Part shown: positions 9 through 52,806 of the stretch, piece by piece | Numbering within the stretch: position 1 is the stretch's first letter | Layout of the letters: every line of letters starts with the position of its first letter | DNA from: Candidatus Moraniibacteriota bacterium | GTDB lineage: Bacteria > Patescibacteriota > Minisyncoccia > Moranbacterales > UBA1568 | DNA length: 64,000 nucleotides | Direction: 5' to 3' | Assembly (NCBI GenBank): GCA_903859375.1 | Contig: CAIOMK010000030.1 | Location: 5,238-69,237, forward strand | The notes under the pieces: model-generated | Seen by the model: the letters and a program-made list of their open reading frames with translations, nothing else | The model's database searches: none | What the model was told of the DNA's origin: nothing | Position numbers and translations under genes: made by a program

Positions 9-1178
9 TTATTTCTCTACCACGACGGTCTCATCGAGCTCGTCGAGATCGCGGGTCTTCTTTATAGTGAGTGATACCGATTCCTTGTCCGGCACTTTCG
101 CGGCGTCGATAGCCTGGCGTGCCGAAACGGGTAGAACGGGGAGAATCCCCTTGAGTGCCGTACCATTAATCTTCCTTATTTCGTCCCATTTGTCAAGGGG
201 CTCAAGTATCTCTTTGAGCGTATTTTCGTCATATTTCCATGTCCGACGGACTGATTTTCCGACGATGCCGGACGATCCGAACACACGATCTACCTGCTTT
301 TCGTCCATATAACTGAGCAGTTTCTCTTGGAGCTCTGCAAAGTGCGATTTGTCGGATTTCATCTTGTCGCGGAGTATCAGGACTTCCTCGATGGCGGTCT
401 GCGCGTCGTCGTCTTCGATCGTTTTTTCTTCGAGGAACTTGTGTTTGAAGAACGGGCACAGTCGTTGGAATCCACAGTAGTCACAAAGAGCCGTCAGTGT
501 CGGTTCGAACTCGGCGGCCTCGATATGCGAGATGACCTCGAGAAACTGTGCGTCGAGATTGTCGAGCTGTTCACGGGTGCGCGTCGAGGAGAGTTTCACT
601 CCGTGACGGAGATAATAGAGGCTCACAGTGATGCGATCGAGGTGTTCGGTCTCCTTGGGATAGCGGGCAAGGAACGCGCGCAGATAGATGGAGAGCTGGA
701 GGTCGTTGTCCACTTTCTCCTGTGACGGCATTTTGCGCGCGGTCTTGTAGTCGATGATTTCAAATCCGTCCGGAGTCGCGTCGATGCGGTCGATGGTGCC
801 GGCGATGATGTGTCTGCCGGTCGCATCGTCGCCGATCTCGATCGCGAACCTACTCTCCAGGTCCACTATGGTGAACTCATTCGGATCGTTCTTCGCGTAA
901 TAGTCCGAAATGATTTTCACGCCCTGTGAGAACGCCGTGCGTTCGGCTATCTCGTCGTCGTAGAGGTCGCTGTTCCATATCTGTGAGAACTGATTGAGCG
1001 CGGCATCGAGAGACGGCTGTACCGGTCCGGGAGTATGTATGTAGCGAAGCACCGAATGGACTATCGTCCCGAACACCTGTTCGCGGGACTTCGGTTCCCT
1101 GATGCGGTCGATATACTGGAACCGGTACTTGAGCGGACAGTTCTTGTATGAGTCGAGACCGGAATAGGAGATGCGCAT
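9..1178 (-). CDS. PD-(D/E)XK nuclease, Cas4/AddB-like with Fe-S cysteine cluster
   Basis: 389 aa ORF ending with TAA at 9-11. N-terminal Cys (NCPLKY) plus C-terminal CDYCGFQRLC cluster gives the 1+3 Cys arrangement of Cas4/AddB Fe-S nucleases. D...EIIDYK motif (TIDRID...FEIIDYKT) matches the PD-(D/E)XK core. Motif reading only, no search run. Confidence 0.6.
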   Translation of the reverse strand: MRISYSGLDSYKNCPLKYRFQYIDRIREPKSREQVFGTIVHSVLRYIHTPGPVQPSLDAALNQFSQIWNSDLYDDEIAERTAFSQGVKIISDYYAKNDPNEFTIVDLESRFAIEIGDDATGRHIIAGTIDRIDATPDGFEIIDYKTARKMPSQEKVDNDLQLSIYLRAFLARYPKETEHLDRITVSLYYLRHGVKLSSTRTREQLDNLDAQFLEVISHIEAAEFEPTLTALCDYCGFQRLCPFFKHKFLEEKTIEDDDAQTAIEEVLILRDKMKSDKSHFAELQEKLLSYMDEKQVDRVFGSSGIVGKSVRRTWKYDENTLKEILEPLDKWDEIRKINGTALKGILPVLPVSARQAIDAAKVPDKESVSLTIKKTRDLDELDETVVVEK

Positions 1179-7591: not shown

Positions 7592-8182
7592 TTACTCTTG
7601 TTGATCGTTGTCCGTCGAATGCTGATCATACCGACCCAGTGGAAATTCATCCATCGACAGATATTGACGTTTCGCGCCGGCGCCGATGCTTTCCAGGAGC
7701 AGGATCGATGATACGGGTTCCGCAAGCGAAACGGTCTGTGGGAACATGGCAAGCTTCTCTTCGGGAAGTAAGGGGAACTCGGCCCGCTTGACCTGGGCGA
7801 GCGTCACACGGGGACGGAACCGTTTGCCGTCGACTTTTTTTCCTGCCAGATCACGCTCCAGCGCATTGCGAAGGGCGAGCAGTTGAGGACTCTCTTCCCC
7901 GACCAGTTGGATCATTTTCGTCGGTCCTTCCGCCGGTGCGAGCTCGATCGTGTCGAACATCAGATCGAACGGCTCGAACTCGGCACAGACCGCTTCAGCT
8001 TTTTCGGCGATCTCGACCGCGTGTTCGTCCGTCACGAATCCGAGAAAAAGCACCGTTACGAAAAGATTCTCCGGACGGGTCGGAAACATCGGCAGACTCC
8101 CCCACTTGGAAATGCCCTGTGCCAGGCGTGTACTCAATTTTCCGGACAAAGGTATCCCGAGATAGAGCTTTCGTTCGTTCAT
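7592..8182 (-). CDS. 2H phosphoesterase-like protein (LigT/ThpR fold) with both catalytic His positions substituted
   Basis: Start placed at the ATG at 8180-8182 (MNERKLYLG). Two LigT-like repeats, ENLFVTVLFLG and FRPRVTLAQV, align to the H-x-T-x motifs (ENLHLTLAFLG / FHPHITLAR) with H->F and H->R. Confidence 0.5.
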   Translation of the reverse strand: MNERKLYLGIPLSGKLSTRLAQGISKWGSLPMFPTRPENLFVTVLFLGFVTDEHAVEIAEKAEAVCAEFEPFDLMFDTIELAPAEGPTKMIQLVGEESPQLLALRNALERDLAGKKVDGKRFRPRVTLAQVKRAEFPLLPEEKLAMFPQTVSLAEPVSSILLLESIGAGAKRQYLSMDEFPLGRYDQHSTDNDQQE

Positions 8183-8268
8183 AGTGTGGATATCGATATG
8201 GGTCCAGAGTAACAGGAAATCATCAATGACGGCAAGGAAGCGAGCCCCCGCACGTTCCGACACCCTCC

Positions 8269-9257: not shown

Positions 9258-9563
9258 TCAATGAATCAGCCGATCTCCGGATATGAATGCGTATGTGAGA
9301 TACAAAAAGGCGAGATTCTCGATCATGAGGATCGGGATACCGACCAGGAAATACCACTTGCGTATCTTGTGGTGTAGCAAAAACATGCCGGCATATATGC
9401 CGAAACTGCCAAATGCCGCGGCCATGAAAAATAGTATACCTTCGGGAATCCTTTGCGTGCCGTCTTTCCGTGAACGTTCCTTGTCGATAAACATAGTCGT
9501 TATCGCGACGATATTCGTGGCGATAAAGAAGGTGATGAAGATGAGTAATGCTGCGTTTCCCAT
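9258..9563 (-). CDS. DUF1294-like small membrane protein
   Basis: 101 aa, 3 predicted TM helices. Pattern GILFFMAAAFGSFG..HHKIRKW resembles DUF1294. Confidence 0.45.
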   Translation of the reverse strand: MGNAALLIFITFFIATNIVAITTMFIDKERSRKDGTQRIPEGILFFMAAAFGSFGIYAGMFLLHHKIRKWYFLVGIPILMIENLAFLYLTYAFISGDRLIH

Positions 9564-9716
9564 GGCGTTTTCGTATTCATGATCAAAAACAGTCGTCTGA
9601 TGTATCCGTCTCGCGTCACCATCCTAGCATTTACCGCACATATGCTCAATCGACATACCACGAACCGCGACGGTGTCAATATCGCTACATTGTCATTAAA
9701 ACTGTACAATGAAGCC

Positions 9717-11678
9717 ATGAAACGGAATATGATTTATTTTTGCGATATCGCGCCGGTTCTGCCTATCCCGCTGGGAAACAGGCAGGTGTTTTCCTATCTT
9801 TCGGAGTCGGAGATCAAAAGGGGCGCACTTGTATGGATACCGTTCGGACCACGTACCGTAAAGGGAGTCATCTTGGCGTGTGCCGAAATCACGCGTGCCG
9901 AACATCCGAGTGGCAGATTCAAATTCGTGAAGTCGGTCATACGGGAGGCGTTCCTCACCGACGGACAGGTGTCTCTCGCCGAATCCGTTTCCAAGGAATG
10001 TCTTACCCCTCTCGGCAAGACCTTTCGTCATTTTCTTCCGGCAGTCGTCAAAGAGCGCCAGAAAGATGCGATGGCCGATCCGATGGAAAAACCCCCGTTC
10101 CGAATGACGGATGACGAGAAGGAAGCCGTCGCCGTACTTACCGGGCCGTCCGATGGACGACCGTATTTTTTGGAGGCGGATATCGGACAATCACTTCGCA
10201 TCGTGATCGGTGCAAAGCGGACGCTCGGTCAGAAATCCCAGGTACTGGTTCTCGTTCCTGAAATTATTTCCATACCGTACGTGGAGCGTACGTTGCGAGA
10301 ACGGTTCGGTTCGGATTCCGTCGCGTCTTTGCATAGCGGACTCGGTTCCGGTGCGTTTTTCTCGGCATGGGAGCGGATACGAAGTGGAGAGGCGAACGTC
10401 ATCGTCGGGACGAGACAGGCTCTTTTCGCGCCGTTTCAGAATCTCGCACTCATTGCCATGCTCGAGGAGGCGGAAACGGTCGGCTACAAACAATGGGACA
10501 TGAGTCCGCGCTATGACGCCCGACATGTGGCATCCACGCTCGCCTCACTTCATACCGCACACATCTTGTTCGCCGGTTCGGTACAGGGTCTCGATACCGG
10601 ATTGCGTGAACGGCTCGGAGAGGTCCGTGTCCTGAGGATAGGAGAAAGTGAGCCTCTTCCGACACCACCGATCACGATGGTCGATATGCGGAAAGAACGA
10701 TGGAAGAAAAACTATTCCCTGTTTTCCGAAGATCTCCGAAGCGCCATCACCGATGCCCGCAGGAACGGCCGACATGTCATTCTGATAGCGAATCGTGGTG
10801 GACTCGACTCATTTTCAGTCTGTGTCTCGTGCAAGGAAGTGCCACGCTGTCCGGAATGCGATCGGGCGCTCCGTTCGACACGGGAAGGAAGTTTCCGCTG
10901 TCCGGCCTGTCCTTATAAGACGAAAACATTTCCCCGATGCGCGAAATGTGGATCACTCGAGTTCAAAAACATCGGATCCGGTACCGAAAAGATCGAACGC
11001 GAGGCGGCTCGTGCGTTTGGAAACGCGTCGCTGTTCCGTATCGACGAATCCTCATTCAGAAAGTCAGATCGGGAAAAGGCATACGATGCGGTGATTTCTT
11101 CCGGGATTGTCGTGGGGACCCCGTCCCTTCTCAATATCGGTAAGTTGCCTGATAGCCCGCTTATTGCTATCATGGATGCAGATAATTTCCTTTCATTTCC
11201 TGACTTTCAGGCAGATGAACGGTTCCTGAGGATCGTCGCCAAAGCACTTTCCATCGCCGGGGCGGGCGGACGGGTCATCATCCAGACATTTCATCCGGAA
11301 CGGGAGATGCTTATGCATATCTCGGACCAATCCGTCATCACATTGATGGAGAAAACATCCAGGGACCGGGAAGTTCTCCGATACCCCCCATATTTTAGGA
11401 TTTTCCGCATCGCTTTCCGAGATCGGGTCGAGGCGGAATCGATCCGCTTGGCGGACGAGGCATACACCCTCCTTTCGGCGCAGGGTGTCGCGGATGCGAA
11501 TATCCGCATTTCTCCCCCGATGAAACCGCTTTCTCCGAAAGCCCGCGGGCGATATGAACGGATTATCCTTGTCACCGGACCCCGGGATGAGCCTTTTCCG
11601 GAATCGTTACAATCCATATTACTCGGCATGTCCAAATCATGGGCATTCGATCCGGATCCCTTGTCCATGCTCGGATAA
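9717..11678 (+). CDS. priA: primosomal protein N' (PriA)-like with degenerate Walker A and DExH motifs
   Basis: Start at the ATG at 9717 (MKRNMIYF); the ORF-track start at 9579 adds a non-PriA-like extension. PriA-specific 4xCxxC zinc region is present (CVSCKEVPRCPECD...CPACPYK...CAKCGS), as is VLVLVPEI. Motif I reads ADIGQSLRI in place of GVTGSGKTE, and motif II reads MLEEAE in place of IDEEHD. Confidence 0.65.
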   Translation: MKRNMIYFCDIAPVLPIPLGNRQVFSYLSESEIKRGALVWIPFGPRTVKGVILACAEITRAEHPSGRFKFVKSVIREAFLTDGQVSLAESVSKECLTPLGKTFRHFLPAVVKERQKDAMADPMEKPPFRMTDDEKEAVAVLTGPSDGRPYFLEADIGQSLRIVIGAKRTLGQKSQVLVLVPEIISIPYVERTLRERFGSDSVASLHSGLGSGAFFSAWERIRSGEANVIVGTRQALFAPFQNLALIAMLEEAETVGYKQWDMSPRYDARHVASTLASLHTAHILFAGSVQGLDTGLRERLGEVRVLRIGESEPLPTPPITMVDMRKERWKKNYSLFSEDLRSAITDARRNGRHVILIANRGGLDSFSVCVSCKEVPRCPECDRALRSTREGSFRCPACPYKTKTFPRCAKCGSLEFKNIGSGTEKIEREAARAFGNASLFRIDESSFRKSDREKAYDAVISSGIVVGTPSLLNIGKLPDSPLIAIMDADNFLSFPDFQADERFLRIVAKALSIAGAGGRVIIQTFHPEREMLMHISDQSVITLMEKTSRDREVLRYPPYFRIFRIAFRDRVEAESIRLADEAYTLLSAQGVADANIRISPPMKPLSPKARGRYERIILVTGPRDEPFPESLQSILLGMSKSWAFDPDPLSMLG

Positions 11679-11711: not shown

Positions 11712-12182
11712 ATGTTCAATATCATCACATTTGACAATGACGATGCCGCCGTCTTGAGAAAGAAGGCTTCCCGTATCGCCGATCCGACCTCGCCCGAGAT
11801 GATCGCGCTCGTTCCGAAAATGATCGAGGCGATGAGACTCGCCGACGGCACCGGACTTGCCGCTCCGCAGGTCGGTCTTTCAATCCGCCTATTTGTCATC
11901 GAGACGGGCGGTCGTGTCACAGTCGTGTTCAACCCGGTCATCATCGAATATTCCGAGGAAAAGACCGTTTCCGAAGAGGGTTGCCTCAGTGTGCCGAACG
12001 AGTACTTTCCCATCGAGCGTTTCACCCGCATCAGGATGGAATATCAGGATATCGAAGGAAAGAAACATATAATAGACGCAGATGGGTTTCTTTCGACCGT
12101 GCTCCAACATGAGTACGATCATCTCGATGGAGTACTTATCATAGACCGTTTCACTCTGCAACATTCACCCGATCGCCTATGA
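11712..12182 (+). CDS. def: peptide deformylase
   Basis: 156 aa. Motifs GLAAPQVG, EGCLS and QHEYDHLDG are the three PDF signatures. Confidence 0.85.
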   Translation: MFNIITFDNDDAAVLRKKASRIADPTSPEMIALVPKMIEAMRLADGTGLAAPQVGLSIRLFVIETGGRVTVVFNPVIIEYSEEKTVSEEGCLSVPNEYFPIERFTRIRMEYQDIEGKKHIIDADGFLSTVLQHEYDHLDGVLIIDRFTLQHSPDRL

Positions 12183-13219
12183 CATTCGACATTACGCCGA
12201 AACAGGAACCGATACCCCCGATCGACACGGCCGAGGCGCAGGCAGCTGGCAGGATATCTCGTCCGGCGACACCGGACATCCGGGTCGTTTTCATGGGGAC
12301 GCCCGAATTTTCGAAAGACATACTCGAGGGGTTGCTCGACTGCGATTACCATATCGTCGCGTGTTACACGAGGCCGGACAAGCCTGTCGGACGAAAACAG
12401 GAATTGACGCTTTCTCCCGTGAAACGGCTTTCCATAGAGCGGAATATTCCCGTTGAACAGCCGATCAGATTCGATGTGGCAGCGATCGATCAGCTCCGTT
12501 CATATCATCCGGACCTCGTCGTCGTCGCCGCGTATGGCAGACTGCTCCCGGAACATGCGCTTTCCGTTCCGAAATTCGGATGCCTGAACGTCCATACGTC
12601 CCTTCTCCCCCGTTGGCGCGGTGCTTCGCCAGTCCAAAACGCATTGCTTGCCGGCGATACCGGTACCGGAGTTACCATAATCCATATGGACGCCGGAATG
12701 GACACCGGACCGATACTCGCACAGGAAGCGTTTCATATACGCGATAACGATACCCGAGATTCCCTCCTTTCACGCATGACGGAGGATGGGATTCGGCTTC
12801 TGGTAGACAGTATCCCGCGATGGGTCGAGCATCGGATTATTCCCCTTGAACAGGACGGCTCTCAGGCCACACTCTGCCAGCTTATAGAACGCGAAGACGG
12901 GCATATCTTTTGGAGCGAATCGGCCGAGTCTGTTTTGAACCGGTATCGGGCGCTTCATCCGTGGCCCGGCATTTTCACCTTTTGGAATCGTACGGAAGGC
13001 CTCCTCCGCCTCAAATTGGTCCGCATCTCGATCCAGAAGTCAGATCCGTCCACCAGTCATTCTTTCGGAGAAGTATTTCAATCGGGTGAGAAGATCGCTG
13101 TTCAGACCGGAGTGGGCTTGGTGTTCATCGAAGAGGTTCAGCCGGAAGGCAAAAATGTCATGCCTATACGTGATTTTCTGAACGGCCGGCCGGATTTTAT
13201 CGGTGCCATACTTACCTGA
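12179..13219 (+). CDS. fmt: methionyl-tRNA formyltransferase
   Basis: ATGA overlap with the def stop. Core begins RVVFMGTPEF; the HxSLLPxxRG motif is present (NVHTSLLPRWRGASP). A ~33 aa N-terminal extension is implied by the ATG at 12179. Confidence 0.85.
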   Translation: MTFDITPKQEPIPPIDTAEAQAAGRISRPATPDIRVVFMGTPEFSKDILEGLLDCDYHIVACYTRPDKPVGRKQELTLSPVKRLSIERNIPVEQPIRFDVAAIDQLRSYHPDLVVVAAYGRLLPEHALSVPKFGCLNVHTSLLPRWRGASPVQNALLAGDTGTGVTIIHMDAGMDTGPILAQEAFHIRDNDTRDSLLSRMTEDGIRLLVDSIPRWVEHRIIPLEQDGSQATLCQLIEREDGHIFWSESAESVLNRYRALHPWPGIFTFWNRTEGLLRLKLVRISIQKSDPSTSHSFGEVFQSGEKIAVQTGVGLVFIEEVQPEGKNVMPIRDFLNGRPDFIGAILT

Positions 13220-29721: not shown

Positions 29722-30462
29722 GTGAATGCAGACACACTGCACCGTGCCGATATCATAGAGCAGTCACTCGTTGATACGGTCCGAAAAGCTCTGAGTACCG
29801 ATCTCGTCAGTTTGTTTGTCGTAGGCAGTTACGCGAACTATGACATCGTTGAAGGATACAGCGACTATGACGTGCTCGCTTTCGTCGATACCCCCGACCC
29901 GGCAGGCTCACAAATCGATTTCGCAGTCCTTTCGAAAAAGTACGCAGTCGAAATCAAATGCACGGTTCGTCCGTTGTCCGATTTTAAAAACAGGATCCTC
30001 GACAACGACCGTGCAACGAGATTCGTCGGCAATCTCACGTTGCTCGACTTGAAACTTCACGCCCGGCTACTGTACGGAAAAGATATAGTCTCATTGATAC
30101 CGGACGTCCGGGACTTGCTCACAAGAGATCTTCAATCCGAATTACAGGCAGAATATACGCATGCCCTCGACGTAGACAAAGAGAAGAACATCTTTGTCCG
30201 TGAACCGAGGGACTGGTGCAACTATGTCATCAACATGTGTGGCGCCCTTTTACTTGCCGTAGGAATATCGGCGCGAAAGGATACCTATCCGGAGCTGATT
30301 TCACGTCATCATCCGGAGTTCGGAGGTGTACCGTATCTCAAGGAAGCGTTGCAGTTGAGGTCGACGATGAGTGTGCTTCATGTGAGCGACACAGAGCGGG
30401 ATAATTTCAAAAATGTCCTTGCCCTTTTCTTGGATGAATATAGAAGGTATACTTTTAAATGA
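29722..30462 (+). CDS. pol-beta superfamily nucleotidyltransferase (KNTase-like, NTase plus helical domain)
   Basis: GTG start. GS-x11-DYD motif (VVGSYANYDIVEGYSDYDVLAF) followed by an alpha-helical C-terminal domain. Confidence 0.6.
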   Translation: MNADTLHRADIIEQSLVDTVRKALSTDLVSLFVVGSYANYDIVEGYSDYDVLAFVDTPDPAGSQIDFAVLSKKYAVEIKCTVRPLSDFKNRILDNDRATRFVGNLTLLDLKLHARLLYGKDIVSLIPDVRDLLTRDLQSELQAEYTHALDVDKEKNIFVREPRDWCNYVINMCGALLLAVGISARKDTYPELISRHHPEFGGVPYLKEALQLRSTMSVLHVSDTERDNFKNVLALFLDEYRRYTFK

Positions 30463-32009
30463 GCCTTTTCGGCATTCCTCAACCTCATAATGACGACCTT
30501 ATGACGAACGACCAGCGATTCACAAAGAAAGGCGACTTCAAGAGCGAGATGAAGACCGACCGGATGAAAGTACCGGTCGTGTTTCATATCCAAGACGATC
30601 TCCTGCCGGCCGAAGGCACACTCGCCCAGCTCGAAAGCGTCGCAAGCAACGACGGCCTGTTCCGCCATATCGCCGCGATGGCCGATGTCCACTCCAAGCC
30701 GGGACGCAAGAACGCGACCGGCACGACGGTAGCCTCGGAAAAATTCATACTCCCGCAGGTGAACGATACCGATCCGGCATGCGGTATGCGTCTCGTACGG
30801 ACGAACCTGACCGAGGATGATCTTTCCTCGGAGGACATCGATACGCTCTTCGCCGCGCTCGTCGACCGTGTCCCGACCAAGGCCCTCGTCGGCACAGTAC
30901 TCCCCTACCGTGTCATCGTGGACATCTGTCGCAAAGGCGTGGGTGCCGCCGTCGAATACCTCGGGATCGAGACGAAATACGAGCGGGAAAATTCTCTTGA
31001 CCGTGGAAACTTTTTTGGAGAAGAGGTTTCCAAAAAGAAAATCTATGAAGTCATACCACGACTGTTTCTCTTCTTCGCGAAATTCCGATTGGGCATACTC
31101 GGAGCCGCCGGCAACCACTTCCTCGACCTGATGAAGGTCACCGACCTGCCGGACCCGGTGCTTGCGGAAAAGCTCGGGATCAGGAAAGGACAGTATGTCT
31201 TCATGATTCACTGCGGTTCCGGCATCCTCGGTCAATACACGATGTACATGTACACCGCCAAGAAGCGTGAGCATCTTTCGCAGGCGTTCATGGCGTGGCT
31301 CGGACGGATGACGTTTTTCACGTCACGCAGACATGTCATCGACGCCATCGCAACGAAAATCAAAGACTTCGATTTCGGCACCAAAGAAGAGCTCTTCACC
31401 TTCGACGGCGACGGCGAGGACGGGCGCATATATATGGAGGCACGCAACGCCTGCTCAAACTTTGCCCATGCGAATCGCGCCATCATCGCGCACAATGTGT
31501 CGCAAACGATCAAGGAAGTCCTCGGGCGTGATCCGGGCTTCGAGCTCGTCTATGATATGCCACACATCCTGGTTTCCGAGGAGGAACACTACGGCAAGAG
31601 CGCATGGATCCACCGCAACGGCACGAGCCGTGCCTACGGGCCGACCCGCATGGCAGGCCATCCCGTTTTCAGCGAGACAGGCGAACCGGCTTTCATCCCG
31701 ACTTCGATGTCGACAGACGGCTATCTCTGTGTCGGTACGGATGGCAACGAATCGACGTTCTTCTCCTGCAACCACGGTGCCGGCAAACCCAAAGTCGCCG
31801 CCGAATCGGTCGTCCCGACCAGTCGCGAAGAGCTCGACAAAAAACTCGAGGCAAGAGGTGTCCGTCTCTATAACGGTCGCTCATCCAAAGTCATCGAACA
31901 GGATTCCGCCCATTACAAGAACGCCGATGCCGTCATCGCGAGCGTCAAGGAGAACAATATCGTCAAACCCGTCGCCAAACTCCAGCCGGTCGCGGTGATC
32001 ATGTACTAA
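30459..32009 (+). CDS. rtcB: RtcB-family RNA 3'-phosphate/5'-OH ligase
   Basis: ATGA overlap with the NTase stop. Conserved RtcB metal and GMP-binding residues are present: DTDPACGMR, GNHF, HCGSG, HNV and CNHGAG. Confidence 0.8.
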   Translation: MSLFGIPQPHNDDLMTNDQRFTKKGDFKSEMKTDRMKVPVVFHIQDDLLPAEGTLAQLESVASNDGLFRHIAAMADVHSKPGRKNATGTTVASEKFILPQVNDTDPACGMRLVRTNLTEDDLSSEDIDTLFAALVDRVPTKALVGTVLPYRVIVDICRKGVGAAVEYLGIETKYERENSLDRGNFFGEEVSKKKIYEVIPRLFLFFAKFRLGILGAAGNHFLDLMKVTDLPDPVLAEKLGIRKGQYVFMIHCGSGILGQYTMYMYTAKKREHLSQAFMAWLGRMTFFTSRRHVIDAIATKIKDFDFGTKEELFTFDGDGEDGRIYMEARNACSNFAHANRAIIAHNVSQTIKEVLGRDPGFELVYDMPHILVSEEEHYGKSAWIHRNGTSRAYGPTRMAGHPVFSETGEPAFIPTSMSTDGYLCVGTDGNESTFFSCNHGAGKPKVAAESVVPTSREELDKKLEARGVRLYNGRSSKVIEQDSAHYKNADAVIASVKENNIVKPVAKLQPVAVIMY

Positions 32010-36791: not shown

Positions 36792-38405
36792 TCATTTCCG
36801 GATTAGTTGCTCGATGGAAAATCTTCCATAGATGCCAAAGTCTGGGGCGCTGTATGTTTCAGCGACCGATTTCGTGAGTTTTCCCTTGCTCTTCGCATTT
36901 CCGATGAGGACGATCGGTTCGCTTCCGGTCAACTGCTTTTTTTTGGACAACGGCTTGAGGGCGACACCCTTTTGTGCCGTGAAATACTCGATCGATTTCA
37001 GATATTTGAAGATATAGGTCTGCTTGCCTTTCAGAAGCACCGTCTCGCCGGACTGGAAATGGCTTGTAATGTATTCCGCTATGCCCTCGACTTCCCCAAG
37101 GGTGATTTCGGTCGAGGTCGATCCACTGACCAGAGTCTTCCCGGAATGATCGAGGAAGGCCGTCCATACGGCCATACTATTCGTACACAGGACGATTGCG
37201 AGTATCGAGAGCGTCGCTATGAGCATCTGCTTCCGATATGTACCCGCGAATACGGAAAGTGCCTCTATCCACAATCCGAGCAGTATGAACGGGACGAACA
37301 TCGACGCCAGATAAAACCGCAAGGAGATCTCATTGGCAAGCGGTATGAACAGAATGAAATTTATCAGGGCATACATGCCGGTCAGCTGGAGAAAAAGCTT
37401 CACCTGTCCGTCCGTCGATTTTCTGATTGCGCGTATCCACAGCCACGCGCCACCGACTGAAAACAAGACGGAAAGGAATAGTCCCACCAGAAACGGCAAC
37501 TTTCCCGACAGGCCTTTCGCCTTTTGATAAGTCGAGATGACCATGTCGGTCCCACATTCGTCATCGTTGCCGATTCCGGAAATGATGAATGCGTCGGCCT
37601 GTGCCTGACATACGGCATCGGTCGCCAGATCTCCGAGAAGGGTCTTCCCGTTCGCCGTCTTCGTCGTCGTGGCTCCGAAGAATGCCTTTACGTTCGCACC
37701 GTTCGTCTGTGCCAGATCGATGACCTGTCCGATATTGAGCGCGAACGCCACGGCAAAGACGATCGCCGCCGGACGCCACAATGAAGGAGTCTTTCTGCCG
37801 ATGAACATGAAAAAGAGTAGCGCGGTTATCGGCATGACAACCAGAAGTACGGTGTGGAGCTGTACGCCGATGCCGAGCGCCACGCCGGCGACCAGAGCCC
37901 ACCGCAACTTCTTCACGGTCTTCGCGTCCGCAATCGCGAGCAGCGCGTAGAGGAACAGTATCGAATACAACGGCGCCGAATTCGGATTCCATGCGAAGCG
38001 AGCATACTTTATCGCGAAAACGCTCACACTTAGGCCGGCGGTCAGCAGGAGTGCCGTACGAGCCTGAAACGCCCTACGCATCAATAGAAACAGGAGCGGG
38101 ATGGTCAGTATGGACGCGAACAGGTCCGGATAGGCCATCTTGTCAGGGCTGTTTCCGAACACTTTCGCGGAAACGATCTGCAGATAATAAAATGCACCAC
38201 CGAGCTTGAACGTCGTGCCTCCTGCCTTCGGACCGAGCAACGGCCATGCCACATTGCCATCAACCACATGACTCACCAATGACGCGTCACGGGACTGATC
38301 CGCGTTGAACCGGAGCCAATCATGGAACTGATAGGTCCTGAGGAATATCCCGACCGATATGATGCCGAACAGGATGAGTGCGACTGTATTGATTCTTATC
38401 TTCAT
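36792..38405 (-). CDS. GT-C fold glycosyltransferase, ArnT/PMT-like (GT39/GT83-type), paralog A
   Basis: 537 aa, about 11-13 TM helices. N-terminal signature FLRTYQFHDWLRFNADQSRDA in the first extracytoplasmic loop. Divergent C-terminal soluble domain. Confidence 0.7.
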   Translation of the reverse strand: MKIRINTVALILFGIISVGIFLRTYQFHDWLRFNADQSRDASLVSHVVDGNVAWPLLGPKAGGTTFKLGGAFYYLQIVSAKVFGNSPDKMAYPDLFASILTIPLLFLLMRRAFQARTALLLTAGLSVSVFAIKYARFAWNPNSAPLYSILFLYALLAIADAKTVKKLRWALVAGVALGIGVQLHTVLLVVMPITALLFFMFIGRKTPSLWRPAAIVFAVAFALNIGQVIDLAQTNGANVKAFFGATTTKTANGKTLLGDLATDAVCQAQADAFIISGIGNDDECGTDMVISTYQKAKGLSGKLPFLVGLFLSVLFSVGGAWLWIRAIRKSTDGQVKLFLQLTGMYALINFILFIPLANEISLRFYLASMFVPFILLGLWIEALSVFAGTYRKQMLIATLSILAIVLCTNSMAVWTAFLDHSGKTLVSGSTSTEITLGEVEGIAEYITSHFQSGETVLLKGKQTYIFKYLKSIEYFTAQKGVALKPLSKKKQLTGSEPIVLIGNAKSKGKLTKSVAETYSAPDFGIYGRFSIEQLIRK

Positions 38406-38414
38406 ATGTTTTCA

Positions 38415-40073
38415 TTATCGGGCACTATTCGCCATAACCGTATATACGTATGTTTTCTGACCTATTTTCTCATACTCCGTATTATTTTCCGAATCCAATT
38501 CATTGTTCACGTAAAATACGGGGGCACCGGAACGCGAAAACGTCCCGATATCCGTATCATCCACCCATATGAGGTTTTTTCCTTGTTCCGCAATCAGATA
38601 GGACAACGGCTGAAATGAATAATCCATGATTTTGTAATCCCCTCCCAGGTAGATGTCTGTCTGTCCGCCAGAATGGTCAATCAGATATTTCACTATCGGT
38701 TCGATCTCGCCCAAGACGACCGAATGCGAATAGATACGTTTCTGAGCCTGCAGTTCTTCGATGATGGACGAGTATGCCTTGGCATTCGACGCCAGTAAAA
38801 TCAAGAAAACGAGAGAGACAATCGCCCACCCCCATTTTTTATGGAGCCCGATCGCATATTCGGTCAGGAAACCGAGAAACATGAACGGCACGAAAAATGC
38901 GAAGCTGAAATATCTGAGTTCAAGCTTCTCTCCGACGATAGGCAACATGATCAACAGTGACAATCCGAGATATGAAACGACGAACCTGATCCACATTCGT
39001 TTATCACGGTCTTTCTCCCGCAGGAAGCGGTATGCGAGCATCACGTACCCGAATATCGAGAATGCGAGTCCGGCGAACAGCGATGGCATGAATATCCGAC
39101 TCTTGAAATCTTTCAACGTCCTTCCGAATAACAAGGAGTCATAATAGTATGCACAGCTGTCCTGTCCGAATGACGAAATCATATACGAGTTCGCTTCGAT
39201 ATGACAGCCGATATCGTTTATCGGTCCATATCCGCGATTGACAGACGCTTGCCCATCGACCGCCTCGCTCTGTGCAAAATAGTTCAGGAATATTCCCATA
39301 TTAGCGAAACCCGTCTCCGCCTCACTCCGTATCTGTCCGATGTTCAACGCTGCCGCAATGACGCACACGACGAGCAATCGTTTCCATACGCCTCTTTGCC
39401 GGACCAACATATGAACGGATACGAGCAGAAAGAACGATGAGAACAATATGAGCAGTATGACATGCAGCTGGATTCCCACACCGAGTGCCGTCCCCAGAAG
39501 GACAACCCATCGCCATCGAGCCTGTTCACCCTTGATTTTGAATTCATACAGGGAAAGCAGAAACAACAGGACAAAGAACGGTATGAGGTTCGAATTCCAT
39601 GCGAAACGCGAAAAGCGGACAGCGAAGAATGAGACGGCATACAGGCCCGTCAGAGCAAGTGATACGCTGTCATCAAAGAGCTTCTTAAAAAAGAAAAATA
39701 GGAGCGGGATGGACAGGATACCGAAAAAAACATCAGGATACGCCATAGCCTCGGCTTTCATACCGAATATTTTCGCCGAAAGTATCTGGAAATAATAATA
39801 TATCGGGCCCACTTTGAAATGCGTTCCGTTGTCGGTCGAATAGTTTCCCATCGCCGGCCCGAGGAGCGGCCACACCGCACCGTTCTCGACGACGCCTTGA
39901 ACCAGGCTCGCATCTCGGGACTGATCGCCCTTGAACTCGAGCCAGTCGTGGAAATGGTATGTGCGCAGGAAGAGTCCGACTGCCAATATCGAAAACAATG
40001 CCGTCAGAAGAGCAACTTTTTTTGATATCCGCAGGCCATGTATAACGTATTCGTTCATAGTTGTGGGTATCAT
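38415..40073 (-). CDS. GT-C ArnT/PMT-like glycosyltransferase, paralog B
   Basis: 552 aa. FLRTYHFHDWLEFKGDQSRDASLV signature. Lies 9 nt from paralog A. Confidence 0.7.
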   Translation of the reverse strand: MIPTTMNEYVIHGLRISKKVALLTALFSILAVGLFLRTYHFHDWLEFKGDQSRDASLVQGVVENGAVWPLLGPAMGNYSTDNGTHFKVGPIYYYFQILSAKIFGMKAEAMAYPDVFFGILSIPLLFFFFKKLFDDSVSLALTGLYAVSFFAVRFSRFAWNSNLIPFFVLLFLLSLYEFKIKGEQARWRWVVLLGTALGVGIQLHVILLILFSSFFLLVSVHMLVRQRGVWKRLLVVCVIAAALNIGQIRSEAETGFANMGIFLNYFAQSEAVDGQASVNRGYGPINDIGCHIEANSYMISSFGQDSCAYYYDSLLFGRTLKDFKSRIFMPSLFAGLAFSIFGYVMLAYRFLREKDRDKRMWIRFVVSYLGLSLLIMLPIVGEKLELRYFSFAFFVPFMFLGFLTEYAIGLHKKWGWAIVSLVFLILLASNAKAYSSIIEELQAQKRIYSHSVVLGEIEPIVKYLIDHSGGQTDIYLGGDYKIMDYSFQPLSYLIAEQGKNLIWVDDTDIGTFSRSGAPVFYVNNELDSENNTEYEKIGQKTYVYTVMANSAR

Positions 40074-40076
40074 TTC

Positions 40077-41729
40077 CTATTCTTGTTTCACTGTCTGATA
40101 TATATACAGGCTTTCACCACTCCAGCGATTCAGAACGTCCTTCTGATCTGTCGTTTTTGCACAGCCCATAAAGAACGTCCGGGCATCCTCCGGAACATTA
40201 CCATACGAATCATTCGCCCTCATCACTGTAACTCCCCGTTTATCCGCCAAATATATTACCGAATTGAGTGCAGACGACAACCGCCTGTCTTTGGACACAT
40301 ACACGCTTTCCCTGTCCGAATGGGCGGAAATAAAATTCACGAGAGGCTCGATTTCACCAAGCGTCGTCGCGCCGGAACAGGTTGCGTTCTGCGCCGAAAG
40401 TACCGCGGACTTTCCTCCGACGACGGTCAGATTGAAGAAGGCAATCAATATGAACAAAATGACGACAAACACAATCGCATTCACACGGTTCCAACTCTCG
40501 AATATTGATTTTACAAGCAATCCGAACAAGACATACGGCACAAAAAAGATGAAACTGAAATATCTCAGGTCGGCGATGGAACCGTCACTCAAAGGGTACA
40601 TGACGATGAACCCGAGTCCGCAATATAAAGCGAACAATCGGAGGAAATATGACTTTCTTTCTGTGTTTTCTTTCCAGACATTCCGAGCCAACAAGACATA
40701 TCCGGCAGTGGACAAAACGAGACCGAGGAGCAGAAGAGCAGCATCGCTCGCACTATGAGGATTCCTTACGTGGATATCACTGAAGTCTCCTGAAAGAATT
40801 TTGGCATAATCATGGGTGCAGTTGCTGAGCCCGAACGACGATCCATATGATGACAGATACAGGAAATTCGCCTCGATATGACAGCTCACGTCGTTTCCCA
40901 GCTTGTTCAGGATACCTCCACTGGCAGGATTTATCGAGGCGTCTGTGTTGGAAAAAAATCCAAAGAAGGCTTTGGTATTGCCGAAATCCGTCATCGACTC
41001 GTTCACTATCTGACTCCCGTTCAATAACAAGAATATCGAAAGGACAATCGCCCATTCTTTCCATATGACAGGGTCCTTCCTCATCGAAAAGAAAAAGACG
41101 AAAAAAACCACACCTGAGAAAAGGATCATCGTTATGGCATGCAGTTGGAAACCAACCCCCCATGCGATTCCGAGCAATATCGCCCACAACCACGGACGTT
41201 TCTCTTTCTCCCCTATGAATTTCAGGAGGGAATACAGGAAGAGCAGGACAAAAAACGGGATCGGGTTGCTGCTCCATGCGAATCGTGAATAACTGATGAG
41301 ATATGCCGATATCGAATAGAGGCCCGTAAGACCCAATGATAGGTTCCTATCGAAATACATCCTCATGAAGAGAAAGAATAGAGGGAGTGAAAGTATGGAG
41401 AAGAACACGTCCGGATATGCCAACGTATCCGGATAATTCCCAAACACTTTTGCCGATACGATCTGGAAATAATAATAGATTGGTCCCACATGGAAGGACT
41501 CTGCCTCAGTGGCTCCCGAATGGCTCAAAAAAGGTCCGAGGAGAGGCCATGAGGATTCTCCGGAGATGACTTGGTCTACACGGATCGCATCCCTACTCTG
41601 ATCGTCTCTGAATTGCAGCCAATCGTGAAAATTGTAGGTACGAAGAAAAACACCGACTGCCATGATGGCGAGCAGAATCCATATATGCCTCGAAACAGGC
41701 CACATCTTCCTCCACGAAAATGGCGTCAT
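40077..41729 (-). CDS. GT-C ArnT/PMT-like glycosyltransferase, paralog C
   Basis: 550 aa. FLRTYNFHDWLQFRDDQSRDAIRV signature. 3-nt gap to paralog B. Confidence 0.7.
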   Translation of the reverse strand: MTPFSWRKMWPVSRHIWILLAIMAVGVFLRTYNFHDWLQFRDDQSRDAIRVDQVISGESSWPLLGPFLSHSGATEAESFHVGPIYYYFQIVSAKVFGNYPDTLAYPDVFFSILSLPLFFLFMRMYFDRNLSLGLTGLYSISAYLISYSRFAWSSNPIPFFVLLFLYSLLKFIGEKEKRPWLWAILLGIAWGVGFQLHAITMILFSGVVFFVFFFSMRKDPVIWKEWAIVLSIFLLLNGSQIVNESMTDFGNTKAFFGFFSNTDASINPASGGILNKLGNDVSCHIEANFLYLSSYGSSFGLSNCTHDYAKILSGDFSDIHVRNPHSASDAALLLLGLVLSTAGYVLLARNVWKENTERKSYFLRLFALYCGLGFIVMYPLSDGSIADLRYFSFIFFVPYVLFGLLVKSIFESWNRVNAIVFVVILFILIAFFNLTVVGGKSAVLSAQNATCSGATTLGEIEPLVNFISAHSDRESVYVSKDRRLSSALNSVIYLADKRGVTVMRANDSYGNVPEDARTFFMGCAKTTDQKDVLNRWSGESLYIYQTVKQE

Positions 41730-41741
41730 ATCTTCGAACGT

Positions 41742-43361
41742 TTATCGGATCCGATATATACCCACCTGCCCGACGTCCCGATGGTCGATGAAGGTCATCC
41801 CGCCGATTTCCCGATTACCGCCATCCCCGAGTATCGACCCCACATAGAATGCAGAAGCACCGGAAGGGACGCCTCCGATATCGATGCCTCGTTTTAGGGT
41901 CAACCCCTTTTCAGCAGACAGATATATGAGTGTCTTGTTGTATGGGGAATAGTATTTGGTTCCGCCGAACAGGTATGCCGTCTGTCCGGAAGAATTTTCG
42001 ACGATAAAATCGGCAAGCAGTTGAGCCGCATCCAAAACGAGATATCCGGAATCCGCGCGCGTCTTGTCCGCCAACGAAAGAGCCTCGGTACGGATGGACG
42101 AGAGGTTTGTTCCGATAAGGATGGCGAACAGTGCAATCGTTATCGCAAGATATTTCCTCGGATAGTTCCGCTTCAGGTATCCGATCAACAGGCCGATGAA
42201 GACGAACGGCAGAAACGTCATGTGGATGAAATAGCGCATCGGTGCCAGATCGATGATCGGCAACATGACCAGAAATGACATCACGGAATACAGGAGGACG
42301 ACTCCGGTGAAGTATTTTTTCGTCTTTTCCTGTTCCTTCCACGTCATATATACGAGCATCCCATACCCGAAGACCGAAAAACAGAGGCTCGCGAATATTC
42401 CAAGCCGGGCGGATTTACTGCTCGGCAGACGCAATGCGGAATTCGGTTTCATATTTCTCGCCTTCGAGTAGAGAAAATCGCAGTTCTCCTTGTTGCCGAG
42501 AGACGAGGAAATAAGAGAATTCGCCTGCGCCGTACACGCGATATCGAGCACCGTATTCCTCAGGAACCGGCTTCCCCCGCTATTGTCAGACTTGTCCGAA
42601 AACGATGCGAGGAAGACTTTCGTATTCGCGTAATCGGTTCGCTGTTCATGAATAATCTGACCGGTATTCGCCGCGACGACGAGTACGGCTACCACCGCCC
42701 ACCGACTCCATGTCTTCCGACTTTTTATCATCAGGAACAGGAACGACACTCCGGCTGTTCCCAGCATGGTCAGGAGCAGTATCGCGTGCAATTGGGAGCC
42801 TATCCCGATTGAAATACCCAAAAGGATGATCCATATCCATCGAGTCTTTTCTTTCGCAAGAAGAAACTCCCAAAGTGAAATCAGGAACAGTATCACGAAG
42901 AACGGAATCGGGTTCGGATTCCATGCGAACCGTGAATACTCGATCGCATAATACGATATGCCGTACAGTCCCGTCAGGGACAATGCGACTTTTTTATCGA
43001 AATACCGCTTCAGGAACACGTAGAGGAGCGGGATGGACAGAAGATTGAAGAACAGGTCCGGATACGCCAGCTTGTCGGGACCGATTCCGAATATCTTTAC
43101 CGAAACGATCTGAAAATAATAGTATGCCGGACCGAGGAGGAATCCGGTATTCCCCATCGACGATCCGAGCAGCGGCCAAGGGGCGTTGTTTTTCACCACG
43201 TTCTCCACGAGGAATGCGTCCCGAGCCTGATCGTTCCCGAAATGAAGCCAATCGTGGAAATTATATGTCCGAAAAAAGACGGCGAGCACGAAGAGAGCTA
43301 CGATCATAAAATAAAACGTCCGTTCCGACCGGATAATCCGGCAGATTCGTTCCTTCATCAT
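41742..43361 (-). CDS. GT-C ArnT/PMT-like glycosyltransferase, paralog D
   Basis: 539 aa. FFRTYNFHDWLHFGNDQARDAFLV signature. Confidence 0.7.
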   Translation of the reverse strand: MMKERICRIIRSERTFYFMIVALFVLAVFFRTYNFHDWLHFGNDQARDAFLVENVVKNNAPWPLLGSSMGNTGFLLGPAYYYFQIVSVKIFGIGPDKLAYPDLFFNLLSIPLLYVFLKRYFDKKVALSLTGLYGISYYAIEYSRFAWNPNPIPFFVILFLISLWEFLLAKEKTRWIWIILLGISIGIGSQLHAILLLTMLGTAGVSFLFLMIKSRKTWSRWAVVAVLVVAANTGQIIHEQRTDYANTKVFLASFSDKSDNSGGSRFLRNTVLDIACTAQANSLISSSLGNKENCDFLYSKARNMKPNSALRLPSSKSARLGIFASLCFSVFGYGMLVYMTWKEQEKTKKYFTGVVLLYSVMSFLVMLPIIDLAPMRYFIHMTFLPFVFIGLLIGYLKRNYPRKYLAITIALFAILIGTNLSSIRTEALSLADKTRADSGYLVLDAAQLLADFIVENSSGQTAYLFGGTKYYSPYNKTLIYLSAEKGLTLKRGIDIGGVPSGASAFYVGSILGDGGNREIGGMTFIDHRDVGQVGIYRIR

Positions 43362-45016
43362 TTTTTCATTAATGTATATATCATGATCCTCCCGAACCGT
43401 TCATATCCGAGAATGGCGTTGCCATCTACCTTGTCCCCGATCATATACGGCCTCGATTTGATACCGTCTATGTAGAAAAATCGTGTCCCACTTACGAAGG
43501 GTTCCTTGTTTCCCGGACGTACCACAACAGACCCCGATCGTTTGGCGATATAATCGAACGGTTTGAGAAATCGTTTCAGATACATCGTCGATCCATCGAT
43601 ATGGACGGTCCCAAGAGAATCGGTATTCGCGATGAGAAAGGCGACCATCGATTCGGCTTCGCCCAATATGCTGTCGTCGACGGAACTTGCGCTTTTGTCC
43701 ACATACGGCCGTGCCGAAACTATCAGCACAGACACATTCACAAAGAGGAACATCACCATGACAAGTACGTCGGCGGCACCCAGTCGTATCGCTTTCATTT
43801 TTTTCCCAGCGCATGTGTCCAACCAGAGTCCGAGCAAAATGAACGGGATGAAAAACAGGATACTGAAATAACGGACTTCTATCTGGGAAGCCACCGGAAC
43901 GAGCACGATGAACGAAATGAAATTATAGAAAAGTATCAATCCGAGGAACGTGCGTTTCTCTTCGCGCGGTTCCTTTCTCAGGGCTCGTATGGCGAGAACG
44001 TATCCGCCGATTGAGAACAACAATGTCGCAATCATCTCCGCAATGAACAAAACGCCATTTACTGTGGCTCCCGCCGGAACCAACCGGTTTATTTTGAAAC
44101 TCTTGGCAATATTGAACATTCCTCCGCATTCCTGTACGTTTATCGCGGAAAATATGATATGAGTGTTCGCCTGCATCTGACACGATGTGATGAGCGATAT
44201 GTTCCGCAGCAACGTATTCCCCTGCACGCTTGATTCACTGCCGGCACCCCTAAATAACTGACTGCTATTGGCGCCACCGGTACGTAGCTCGTACGAGATC
44301 TGGCCGTAATTCATCAGGAGAAAGAAAGAGAGCACCACTACGAAAATCTGCCACGTAAGATTTTTTTTCACGAGCAGGTACACGCACATTCCGACGGCTG
44401 TCAGAGGCATGATCAAAAACAGCAGGGTATGCAATTGGATGCCGACGCCCATACCGACACCGACCGATATGGCCGAACGATATTTTCCCGCTTTTCCATT
44501 GTCCGCAAGGCCGAGGAGTCCGTAGAGGAACAGGAGCGTGAAAAAAGGGATAGTATTAGGATTTGATGCGAACCGCGAAATCTGAATCGCGAAAAGCGAC
44601 ACACTCAGCAATGCGCTCAGGAAAAGTGACATTCGTACGGAAAAATATTTCCGCAGGAAGAGAAACAGCATCGGAATCGAGAGAATCGAAAAAATCAAAT
44701 CAAAATAGGCGATCTTGTCAGGAGCGTTTCCGAAAACGAGGGCCGACACATATTCGGCCTGATAGTAGAGCGGGCCGAGATAGAACTGTGTATTCCCCGC
44801 CTGCGGACCGAGCGCTGGAAGAGGCGCCTTGCCCGTGATGGCGTCGCTGATATAAGTCGCATCACGCGCCTCGTCGGGGCTGAATCGGAGCCAGTCATGA
44901 AACTGGTATGTACGGCAGAATACGCCCACGATCATGATGGCGAGCAATACCCAGAAATATTTCGGAACCGCCCTGATCCGCGAAACGATAGCTTTATTCG
45001 TCATAGGAAACAACAC
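43358..45016 (-). CDS. GT-C ArnT/PMT-like glycosyltransferase, paralog E
   Basis: 552 aa. FCRTYQFHDWLRFSPDEARDATYI signature. 4-nt overlap with paralog D. Confidence 0.7.
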   Translation of the reverse strand: MLFPMTNKAIVSRIRAVPKYFWVLLAIMIVGVFCRTYQFHDWLRFSPDEARDATYISDAITGKAPLPALGPQAGNTQFYLGPLYYQAEYVSALVFGNAPDKIAYFDLIFSILSIPMLFLFLRKYFSVRMSLFLSALLSVSLFAIQISRFASNPNTIPFFTLLFLYGLLGLADNGKAGKYRSAISVGVGMGVGIQLHTLLFLIMPLTAVGMCVYLLVKKNLTWQIFVVVLSFFLLMNYGQISYELRTGGANSSQLFRGAGSESSVQGNTLLRNISLITSCQMQANTHIIFSAINVQECGGMFNIAKSFKINRLVPAGATVNGVLFIAEMIATLLFSIGGYVLAIRALRKEPREEKRTFLGLILFYNFISFIVLVPVASQIEVRYFSILFFIPFILLGLWLDTCAGKKMKAIRLGAADVLVMVMFLFVNVSVLIVSARPYVDKSASSVDDSILGEAESMVAFLIANTDSLGTVHIDGSTMYLKRFLKPFDYIAKRSGSVVVRPGNKEPFVSGTRFFYIDGIKSRPYMIGDKVDGNAILGYERFGRIMIYTLMKK

Positions 45017-47165: not shown

Positions 47166-47176
47166 GTGAGATATGG

Positions 47177-52787: not shown

Positions 52788-52806
52788 GACTGATACGATA
52801 TTCACA

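Follow-up and report, generated by a model that had tools for sequence, protein, structure and literature searches.

The stretch of DNA considered here, 64,000 nucleotides from an ultra-small patescibacterium, a Candidatus Moraniibacteriota bacterium (hereafter the window), carries at positions 9717-11678 of the plus strand a priA gene whose 653-residue product has lost the motifs of the PriA motor. The eight cysteines of the zinc-binding Cys-rich region (CRR) and the motifs that touch DNA in Escherichia coli PriA are kept. Judged from its sequence, this PriA very probably cannot hydrolyse ATP, and by analogy with characterised PriAs it is probably a pseudohelicase, an ATPase-dead protein that would recognise abandoned forks and nucleate reloading of the replicative helicase. 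With the ATP residues lost, and with the DNA-binding motifs and the zinc-binding CRR under strong purifying selection, a non-hydrolysing, structure-specific scaffold is the natural reading.

Whole-protein profiles, fold and gene order all identify the protein as PriA. An initial annotation, made from the letters alone, had aligned it to PriA over the helicase core, and that alignment is borne out. The PriA equivalog model TIGR00595 is passed at 263.2 bits (cut-off 230.35, E 4e-78), and the 3'-end-binding domain (3'BD) is recognised by PF17764 at 47.5 bits against a cut-off of 22.7. With the narrower PRK05580 and PRK14873 sub-models the protein falls far under every cut-off. In Pfam scans the DEAD and Helicase_C domains are not detected in the window protein; canonical relatives do match them. 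A phmmer search of the PDB returns solely PriA (4NL4, 6DGD, 6DCR and 8FAK, at E values of about 1e-57; 4NL4 at 4.5e-58), and a profile built from 62 sequences reaches PDB PriA at 1e-117. The alignment of this family profile also covers the C-terminal domain (CTD) of the PDB PriAs. The phmmer alignment with 4NL4 stops just short of the SSB-tail pocket (E. coli R697). In the 3'BD, F25 and Y27 fall opposite E. coli F16 and Y18, and the position of E. coli D17 holds Ser in this protein and Tyr in one canonical Moranbacteria PriA.

The fold points the same way. An AlphaFold2 model computed on the 62-sequence alignment has a mean predicted local distance difference test score (pLDDT) of 89.3 and a predicted template-modelling score (pTM) of 0.89. 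When it is compared with the PDB by Foldseek, the nine best matches are all PriA (TM 0.59-0.79), and Mfd (TM <0.43) and DEAD-box helicases come after them. The best match is fork-bound E. coli PriA, 8fak_H (TM 0.79/0.80, E 3.7e-46). The model lies nearer to this structure (TM 0.79, root-mean-square deviation 4.9 Å) than to the apo/ADP structures 4nl4 and 6dcr (TM ~0.69, deviation ~9 Å). The CRR may have been modelled in the 'pivoted', pore-forming position; the likeness may equally be an effect of modelling or coverage.

The layout of the locus is given below, with residue n placed at nucleotide 9717+3(n-1) and the coordinates of the sub-features verified by translation.

9717-11678, plus strand: priA reading frame, putative pseudohelicase, 653 residues (open reading frame (ORF) list, homologue N-termini, TIGR00595, PDB matches, AlphaFold2 and Foldseek)
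9759-10040, plus strand: 3'BD, residues 15-108 (PF17764, E 1.7e-12; Y27 invariant)
10041-10163, plus strand: short linker, residues 109-149, where enterobacterial PriA has a winged-helix domain of ~80 residues (4NL4 alignment, 6dcr profile alignment)
10164-10193, plus strand: strand beta1 and the Walker A (P-loop) remnant YFLEADIGQS, with a two-residue deletion, Lys to Gln158 and Thr to Ser159
10242-10277, plus strand: motif Ia, VLVLVPEIISIP, retained (P181 invariant, E182 at least 90% conserved)
10407-10436, plus strand: motif Ic-like GTRQALFAPF, retained (R233, F237 and P239 invariant in degenerate and canonical homologues)
10461-10475, plus strand: motif II (DExH box) remnant LEEAE, Asp to Leu249 and Gln/His to Ala252
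10485-10523, plus strand: aromatic-rich loop, YKQWDMSPRYDAR (K258, W260, M262, P264, R265 and Y266 invariant in 62 sequences)
10575-10589, plus strand: motif III remnant GSVQG, canonical GSATP (alignments)
10821-10949, plus strand: CRR, four CxxC pairs and two predicted zinc sites (Cys conservation)
11115-11126, plus strand: motif V remnant GTPS, canonical GTQM (alignments)
11241-11264, plus strand: motif VI remnant KALSIAGA, with the Gln and both Arg of Q..GR..R gone (alignments)
11388-11660, plus strand: CTD, residues 558-648 (PF18074; modelled at pLDDT ~89-96)
11712-12182, plus strand: def, peptide deformylase, the downstream neighbour (PF01327, E 8.6e-45)
12179-13219, plus strand: fmt, methionyl-tRNA formyltransferase, overlapping def by 4 nucleotides (PF00551, PF02911)

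In the ORF list the locus appears as a single long open frame, 9579-11678 (+). The N-termini of 45 close homologues place the start of priA at an internal ATG, position 9717, which is exactly the start of the span given by the initial annotation. The 699-residue form that begins at 9579 was rejected, its N-terminal extension not being conserved. Public gene calls (P0001) carry this longer form and are probably over-extended.

The motif states were read from a phmmer alignment to Klebsiella pneumoniae PriA (4NL4), a MAFFT alignment with 119 homologues, and clade consensus lines. In the phmmer alignment 'LEADIGQS--LRIV' faces 'LLAGITGSGKTEVY' of 4NL4 and 'IAMLEEAE' faces 'VIVIDEEH'; the MAFFT alignment places the motifs identically. 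Motif I, canonically L-F-G-P-A-x-x-G-K-T-E-V-Y, has become F-L-E-A-D-I-(two-residue gap)-G-Q158-S159-L-R-I, so that the lysine is now Q158 and the threonine S159. Motif II, D-E-E-Q/H-D in canonical PriA, reads L249-E-E-A252-E, and the G-S-A-T-P of motif III reads G287-S-V-Q-G. Motif V has changed from G-T-Q-M to G-T-P-S, and in motif VI the canonical Q..G-R..R is replaced by K509..S512-I513..A516. In the model, strand 150-153 passes almost directly into helix 156-170 (pLDDT 93-97), which means that the phosphate-binding loop is physically shortened.

The initial annotation had reported that the P-loop was replaced with loss of its lysine, and that the DEEH box had become LEEA with loss of the Asp and His. 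It had proposed alignment with 4NL4 as a check, and both losses are confirmed by that alignment and by the one with 119 homologues. It had also considered that an intact GxGKT or DExH might lie elsewhere in the sequence. None is seen in the alignments, and a regular-expression scan finds no [GA]xxxxGK[ST], DExH/Q/D, SAT or QxxGRxxR anywhere in the 699-residue frame. A lone 'GKT' (G100-K101-T102) was considered as a P-loop and rejected, as it sits within a helix of the 3'BD, opposite 'GDV' of the K. pneumoniae protein.

From these motif states we infer that the protein neither binds nor hydrolyses ATP in the canonical way and would neither translocate on DNA nor unwind it. Were it an enzyme still, residues outside the canonical set would have to bind and hydrolyse ATP or another nucleotide. 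Two glutamates of motif II (Glu250 and Glu251) and the Gly-Thr pair in motif V do persist, and E. coli PriA has been proposed to possess a second, weak site for nucleotides (PMC5778457). However, the P-loop is cut to a turn of two to three residues, and the Lys, Thr, Asp, SAT, Gln and both Arg fingers are missing together, with no alternative P-loop in the ORF. In E. coli PriA the K230R substitution alone abolishes the ATPase (PMC5778457). Continued catalysis is thus very improbable.

The elements outside the ATP site present a different picture. The four PriA-specific CxxC pairs that the initial annotation had noted as kept (C369/372, C378/381, C395/398 and C408/411) are all there, and their eight cysteines are conserved in 111-120 of 120 homologues. 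Seven of the eight are invariant in a set of 62 degenerate and canonical sequences, and the eighth, C381, is conserved in at least 90% of them. The six aromatic-rich loop residues named above are invariant in the same 62 sequences, as are R233, F237 and P239 (GTRxxxFAPF), P181 of motif Ia, G362 of motif IV, G467 and T468.

Retention was compared over the 147 nearest full-length sequences, namely 145 cluster representatives, the query and the reference P0112. Among these, 66 PriAs lack GK[ST] at motif I (65 representatives and the query). Motifs were assigned to ATP or DNA contacts from general knowledge of SF2 helicases and from PMC10175261. In the 66 Walker-A-less PriAs the fraction of ATP-contact residues kept is 0.13 for motif I and 0.15 for motif VI, and motifs II and III are kept at 0.43-0.56. 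The corresponding fractions are 0.95 for motif Ia (P-E), 0.88 for motif Ic, 0.90 for the aromatic-rich loop, 0.74 for motif IV and 0.99 for the CRR cysteines. In E. coli PriA the aromatic-rich loop, like motifs Ia, Ic and IV, belongs to the elements that touch DNA and wedge themselves into the junction of the fork (PMC10175261). The CRR, lobe 2 and the CTD together form a pore around the lagging-strand single-stranded DNA (ssDNA), and PriB docks on the CRR (PMC10175261).

The winged-helix domain is absent. Some 80 residues of 4NL4 (130-213) are unmatched in the query, the alignment stepping from 130 to 213 in 4NL4 as the query goes from 123 to 129. Residues 107-131 have no secondary structure in the AlphaFold2 model, and the family profile aligns end to end, in one stretch, with 6dcr, a PriA from which the winged helix is deleted. 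All patescibacterial PriAs of ~630-690 residues, catalytically intact ones included, are without this ~80-residue domain, which binds the parental duplex in E. coli PriA. Since intact enzymes lack it too, the absence is a lineage trait and no part of the degeneration.

Degenerate motifs could in principle mark an artefact or a decaying gene, and nothing beyond the motifs themselves favours this. Exact copies of the protein occur in 175 blocks of the assembly collection and on 116 contigs of up to 143 kb. The 45 nearest cluster representatives (42-76% identity; where named, Candidatus Moranbacteria/Moraniibacteriota) are all full-length, intact ORFs with the same degenerate motifs. Compared with a 73%-identical orthologue in GCA_037139695.1 (L083), dN, the non-synonymous rate, is 0.20 and dS, the synonymous rate, ~2.4, a ratio of ~0.08 that is an upper-bound-like indication only, given that dS is saturated. 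Split by domain, the same comparison gives a dN/dS of 0.015 in the CRR, which is 94% identical; helicase lobe 1 (HL1) stands at 0.066 and the C-terminal portion of lobe 2 (HL2b) at 0.11. Non-synonymous divergence (pN) of priA is not above that of def and fmt in this genome pair. With an intact frame of 653 residues and a confident model besides, an artefact or a decaying gene is scarcely credible. Sequencing or assembly error and a pseudogene were accordingly rejected; a sequencing error in this region, a reservation of the initial annotation, is ruled out by the 175 identical blocks and the 45 relatives in the same state.

Conservation within the clade can be set against that among canonical PriAs. 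Mean pairwise identity in the degenerate and canonical clades, respectively, is 0.51 and 0.51 overall, 0.53 and 0.56 for HL1, and 0.51 and 0.57 for HL2b. The CRR (0.74 vs 0.54) and the 3'BD (0.55 vs 0.46) are better conserved in the degenerate clade, where no domain is more conserved than the CRR. Both RecA-like lobes keep their fold and remain under purifying selection.

The gene stands in a conserved neighbourhood. The order priA-def-fmt-rhodanese-(groES) is common to the window, to the canonical locus P0112 (L001), to the intermediate P0055 (L002) and to the degenerate P0031, P0003 and P0004. The priA-def-fmt slot is shared by canonical and degenerate loci, and the window gene is therefore a positional orthologue. 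A scan for promoters and terminators around priA-def-fmt gave the same counts as shuffled sequence. A small gene for a DUF1294 membrane protein, at 9258-9563 on the minus strand, is divergent from priA and also adjoins it at P0031, whose PriA is 50% identical. A LigT-like 2',5'-RNA ligase/phosphoesterase gene (7592-8263, minus strand) is conserved upstream of priA at P0055 and P0031.

If a second, catalytically intact priA were present elsewhere, the window gene might be a degenerate paralogue or an accessory subunit. The view of this genome is limited to 64 kb, and the count in related genomes holds among the matches listed, which leaves some room for such a copy. Nevertheless, it is decidedly unlikely. 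No second priA was found in the window by tblastn with four PriA types, canonical, intermediate and degenerate ones among them, which return only this locus. Among the GTDB matches listed, each patescibacterial assembly shows a single priA locus, and so do the four closest (L003-L006, 49-55% identity); a canonical copy would score at an E value of ~1e-105 to 1e-118, within the top 40. Moreover, the orthologous syntenic position is held by the degenerate gene itself. Pfam scans of 30 other ORFs in the window find no DnaB, DnaC, DciA, PriB, DnaT or SSB. The genome check for a second priA and for dnaT, priB and dnaC that the initial annotation proposed is thus answered for the 64-kb window, where none is found.

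A further explanation is that the PriA scaffold has been repurposed as another sensor of DNA structure or a regulator, the dead lobes and the CRR serving a new ligand or partner. Despite lost catalysis the helicase lobes match those of active relatives in conservation, the CRR and 3'BD surpass their counterparts there, and the clade has conserved replacements of its own, L-E-E-x-E in place of motif II and R161 in what was the P-loop helix. All of this would suit a new function. Yet what survives is precisely the set of elements that contact the fork in E. coli PriA, and the gene fills the ancestral priA-def-fmt slot. The four related genomes have no other priA among the matches listed, and the precedent of Deinococcus radiodurans favours a kept restart role. 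Repurposing is an unlikely outcome on balance.

A restart protein without a motor, the reading preferred here, could work as follows. The pocket of the 3'BD would hold the 3' end of the leading strand, while motifs Ia, Ic and IV and the aromatic-rich loop would contact DNA at the fork junction. The zinc-bound CRR and the CTD, with lobe 2, would make both a pore for lagging-strand ssDNA and a surface for docking of partners. In the absence of a motor, action would be confined to abandoned forks or D-loops that already expose lagging-strand ssDNA and can be clamped passively, or would depend on a different helicase. Partners would dock on the CRR, to judge by its exceptional conservation, and this conserved surface may recruit the replicative helicase DnaB, directly or through a loader. 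We know of no PriB, DnaT or DnaC in this lineage. The initial annotation had arrived at a similar scaffold for primosome or restart loading. Every sequence-level test supports that part of it; as a kind of protein the scaffold is not new, having precedents in D. radiodurans PriA and the E. coli K230R and K230A proteins.

Several points weigh against a restart role without a motor. The CTD is a borderline match to PF18074 (27.2 bits, cut-off 26.9). The scan of GTDB species genomes used three peptide patterns, and the finding of one priA per assembly holds among the matches listed only. Since 64 kb of the genome is visible, a second active priA or a compensating helicase (Rep/PcrA/RecG) may be encoded elsewhere. 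PriB, the partner of the CRR in E. coli, is not known from bacteria other than some Proteobacteria. Finally, the strong conservation of the dead lobes could mean a new function outside restart.

Loss of the motor is not peculiar to this gene. An exhaustive HMMER search of 1.84 billion cluster representatives (clustered at 50% identity) gave 16,553 PriA-like matches, and the 145 nearest full-length representatives were surveyed. GK[ST] is missing at motif I in 65 of these, nearly all of patescibacterial size: 63 of the 106 representatives shorter than 720 residues are without it, vs 2 of the 39 longer ones. At least eight CRR cysteines are kept by 61 of the 65, DExQ/H is missing in 56 and GRxxR in 64. 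Only about 20 of the best 120 matches are canonical. In a large sister group ('FLDTSxxxDPKK / TEEQDE-SYKQ / SGTPS / GTQM') motif I and the Asp of motif II are gone and motif V is kept; a smaller group has 'LDFDGHD' at motif II. Two long representatives (~805 residues) are likewise without GK[ST].

Among the GTDB matches listed, a full G-x4-GK[ST] is absent from 21 of 39 patescibacterial loci, and 19 of the 21 also lack motifs II and VI. Labels among the degenerate loci include Patescibacteria group bacterium, Minisyncoccota and Saccharibacteria. This taxonomic breadth is taken from record titles, some of them evidently auto-assigned ('Bdellovibrionales', 'Gammaproteobacteria'). For example, L005, L007, L010, L012, L013, L036 and others have a Moranbacteria-type PriA in the same synteny and are titled 'uncultured Bdellovibrionales' or 'uncultured Gammaproteobacteria'. 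Such titles of third-party annotation (TPA) metagenome-assembled genomes look like automatic taxonomic mislabels. Differently degenerate PriA lineages are represented by L031-L034, L036, L037, L065, P0211, P0227 and P0255. 'DADDD' at motif II occurs in loci labelled Patescibacteria group bacterium, and another degenerate locus is labelled Saccharibacteria. In P0211 the sole change is Lys to Asn in GKT, with the other motifs intact, and by its motifs this PriA looks like an early stage of motor loss.

On a rough neighbour-joining tree, Fitch parsimony counts ~12 losses and 2 gains; in terms of all-degenerate clades the count is 15. Neighbour joining is unreliable at ~30% identity, and the figures are read only as several to many losses of the Walker A lysine, probably independent. 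Motor-less PriA appears to be widespread and recurrent in Patescibacteria, on a scale not found in the literature. A literature search on PriA in Patescibacteria, the Candidate Phyla Radiation (CPR), Parcubacteria, Saccharibacteria and Moranbacteria found nothing relevant, its coverage being incomplete.

A bolder proposal is that Patescibacteria have many times made PriA into a motor-less fork sensor that acts as a direct, ATP-independent adaptor or loader of DnaB in genomes without PriB, DnaT and DnaC. The conversions would number roughly a dozen on the rough tree. The constraint on the dead RecA lobes and above all on the zinc-bound CRR of the query's clade, which equals or exceeds that in active relatives, would be explained by this role. 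We consider the proposal doubtful in this full form. If it were true, these bacteria would have a minimal replication-restart pathway of one protein.

The remainder of the window is of a different character. Its other ORFs (30 were scanned with Pfam) include envelope glycosylation genes, gltX, RtcB and similar, and no replication genes. Envelope glycosylation accounts for much of it: Wzy, glycosyltransferases of families GT1, GT2 and GT4, a flippase and a UDP-glucose dehydrogenase. Five tandem paralogous membrane proteins of ~540-550 residues (36792-45016, minus strand), two of which were scanned and match PMT_2 (GT39/ArnT-like glycosyltransferase), are followed by a 741-residue ORF without a Pfam match (45018-47243, minus strand) and by a further PMT_2/PMT protein downstream (49201-51045, plus strand). 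An RtcB RNA ligase is encoded at 30459-32009 (plus strand). A glycoside hydrolase of family 28, polygalacturonase-like, lies at 52681-54486 (plus strand, E 1e-28) and is unusual in a reduced CPR genome. The only other gene of DNA metabolism seen is at 9-1178 (minus strand). Its product belongs to the PD-(D/E)XK nuclease family (PF12705, E 7e-38) and has a cluster of cysteines at the C-terminus (…CDYCGFQRLCPFF…), which recalls nucleases of the AddB/Cas4 type.

The PriA pseudohelicase is a kind of protein already known from Deinococcus-Thermus and is not a new principle. What the window gene adds is a second, independent and more radical case of a motor-less PriA, and its relatives suggest that this state is the rule, not the exception, in a large part of Patescibacteria. 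Such PriAs amount to a natural experiment that can show what restart requires of PriA once the motor is gone, and the CRR stands out as the part under the strongest constraint. Small PriAs that have neither winged helix nor motor are also simple subjects for study of the handover from PriA to DnaB without PriB and DnaT. For annotation, such proteins should not be named 'helicase'.

The closest known counterpart is D. radiodurans PriA. It shows no ATPase or unwinding, binds ssDNA and forks almost as tightly as the E. coli protein does, and enters into a complex with DnaB (Lopper et al. 2015, PMC4504706). Like the window protein, it has non-consensus Walker A and B motifs and has kept the CRR and the DNA-binding parts, and it has been proposed to initiate restart without a motor by touching DnaB directly, its lineage having no recognisable PriB or DnaT (PMC4504706). 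A PriA orthologue with Walker A and B off consensus at the catalytic residues, the window protein would be classed as a pseudohelicase of the D. radiodurans type. A review of 2017 gives Deinococcus as the sole exception to conserved PriA helicase activity (PMC5778457). The differences are several. Among such motor-less PriAs only that of Deinococcus has been put to biochemical tests, whereas the window protein is known from sequence and a model. D. radiodurans PriA belongs to another phylum. Since the window protein has its nearest relatives among canonical PriAs of Patescibacteria, its loss of the motor arose independently of that in Deinococcus. In Deinococcus-Thermus the Lys of GKT is changed to Arg; in the window protein the loop itself is shorter, and motifs III, V and VI have been erased too. 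Unlike D. radiodurans PriA, the window protein has no winged-helix domain.

The E. coli variants K230R and K230A (priA300) provide a functional model for the remaining capacity of the window protein. They have lost ATPase, helicase and translocase activities, yet primosomes are assembled (PMC5778457, PMC10175261). PriA-PriB restart works in vivo and priA300 cells are near wild type; the PriA-PriC route still needs the PriA helicase (PMC5778457). K230A supports DnaB loading in vitro (PMC10175261). In contrast to the window protein, these variants carry a single engineered substitution in an otherwise intact motor, and they depend on PriB, DnaT and DnaC.

Wild-type E. coli and K. pneumoniae PriA (8FAK, 4NL4, 6DGD) have in common with the window protein the 3'BD, two RecA-like lobes, a CRR in lobe 2 and the CTD, together with the aromatic-rich loop, motifs Ia, Ic and IV and the eight cysteines. 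Identity to them is 24-26%, and the window protein differs in having neither the winged-helix domain nor functional motifs I, II, III, V and VI. The engineered E. coli PriA without its winged helix (6DCR) has the same domain complement as the window protein, but its ATPase core is active.

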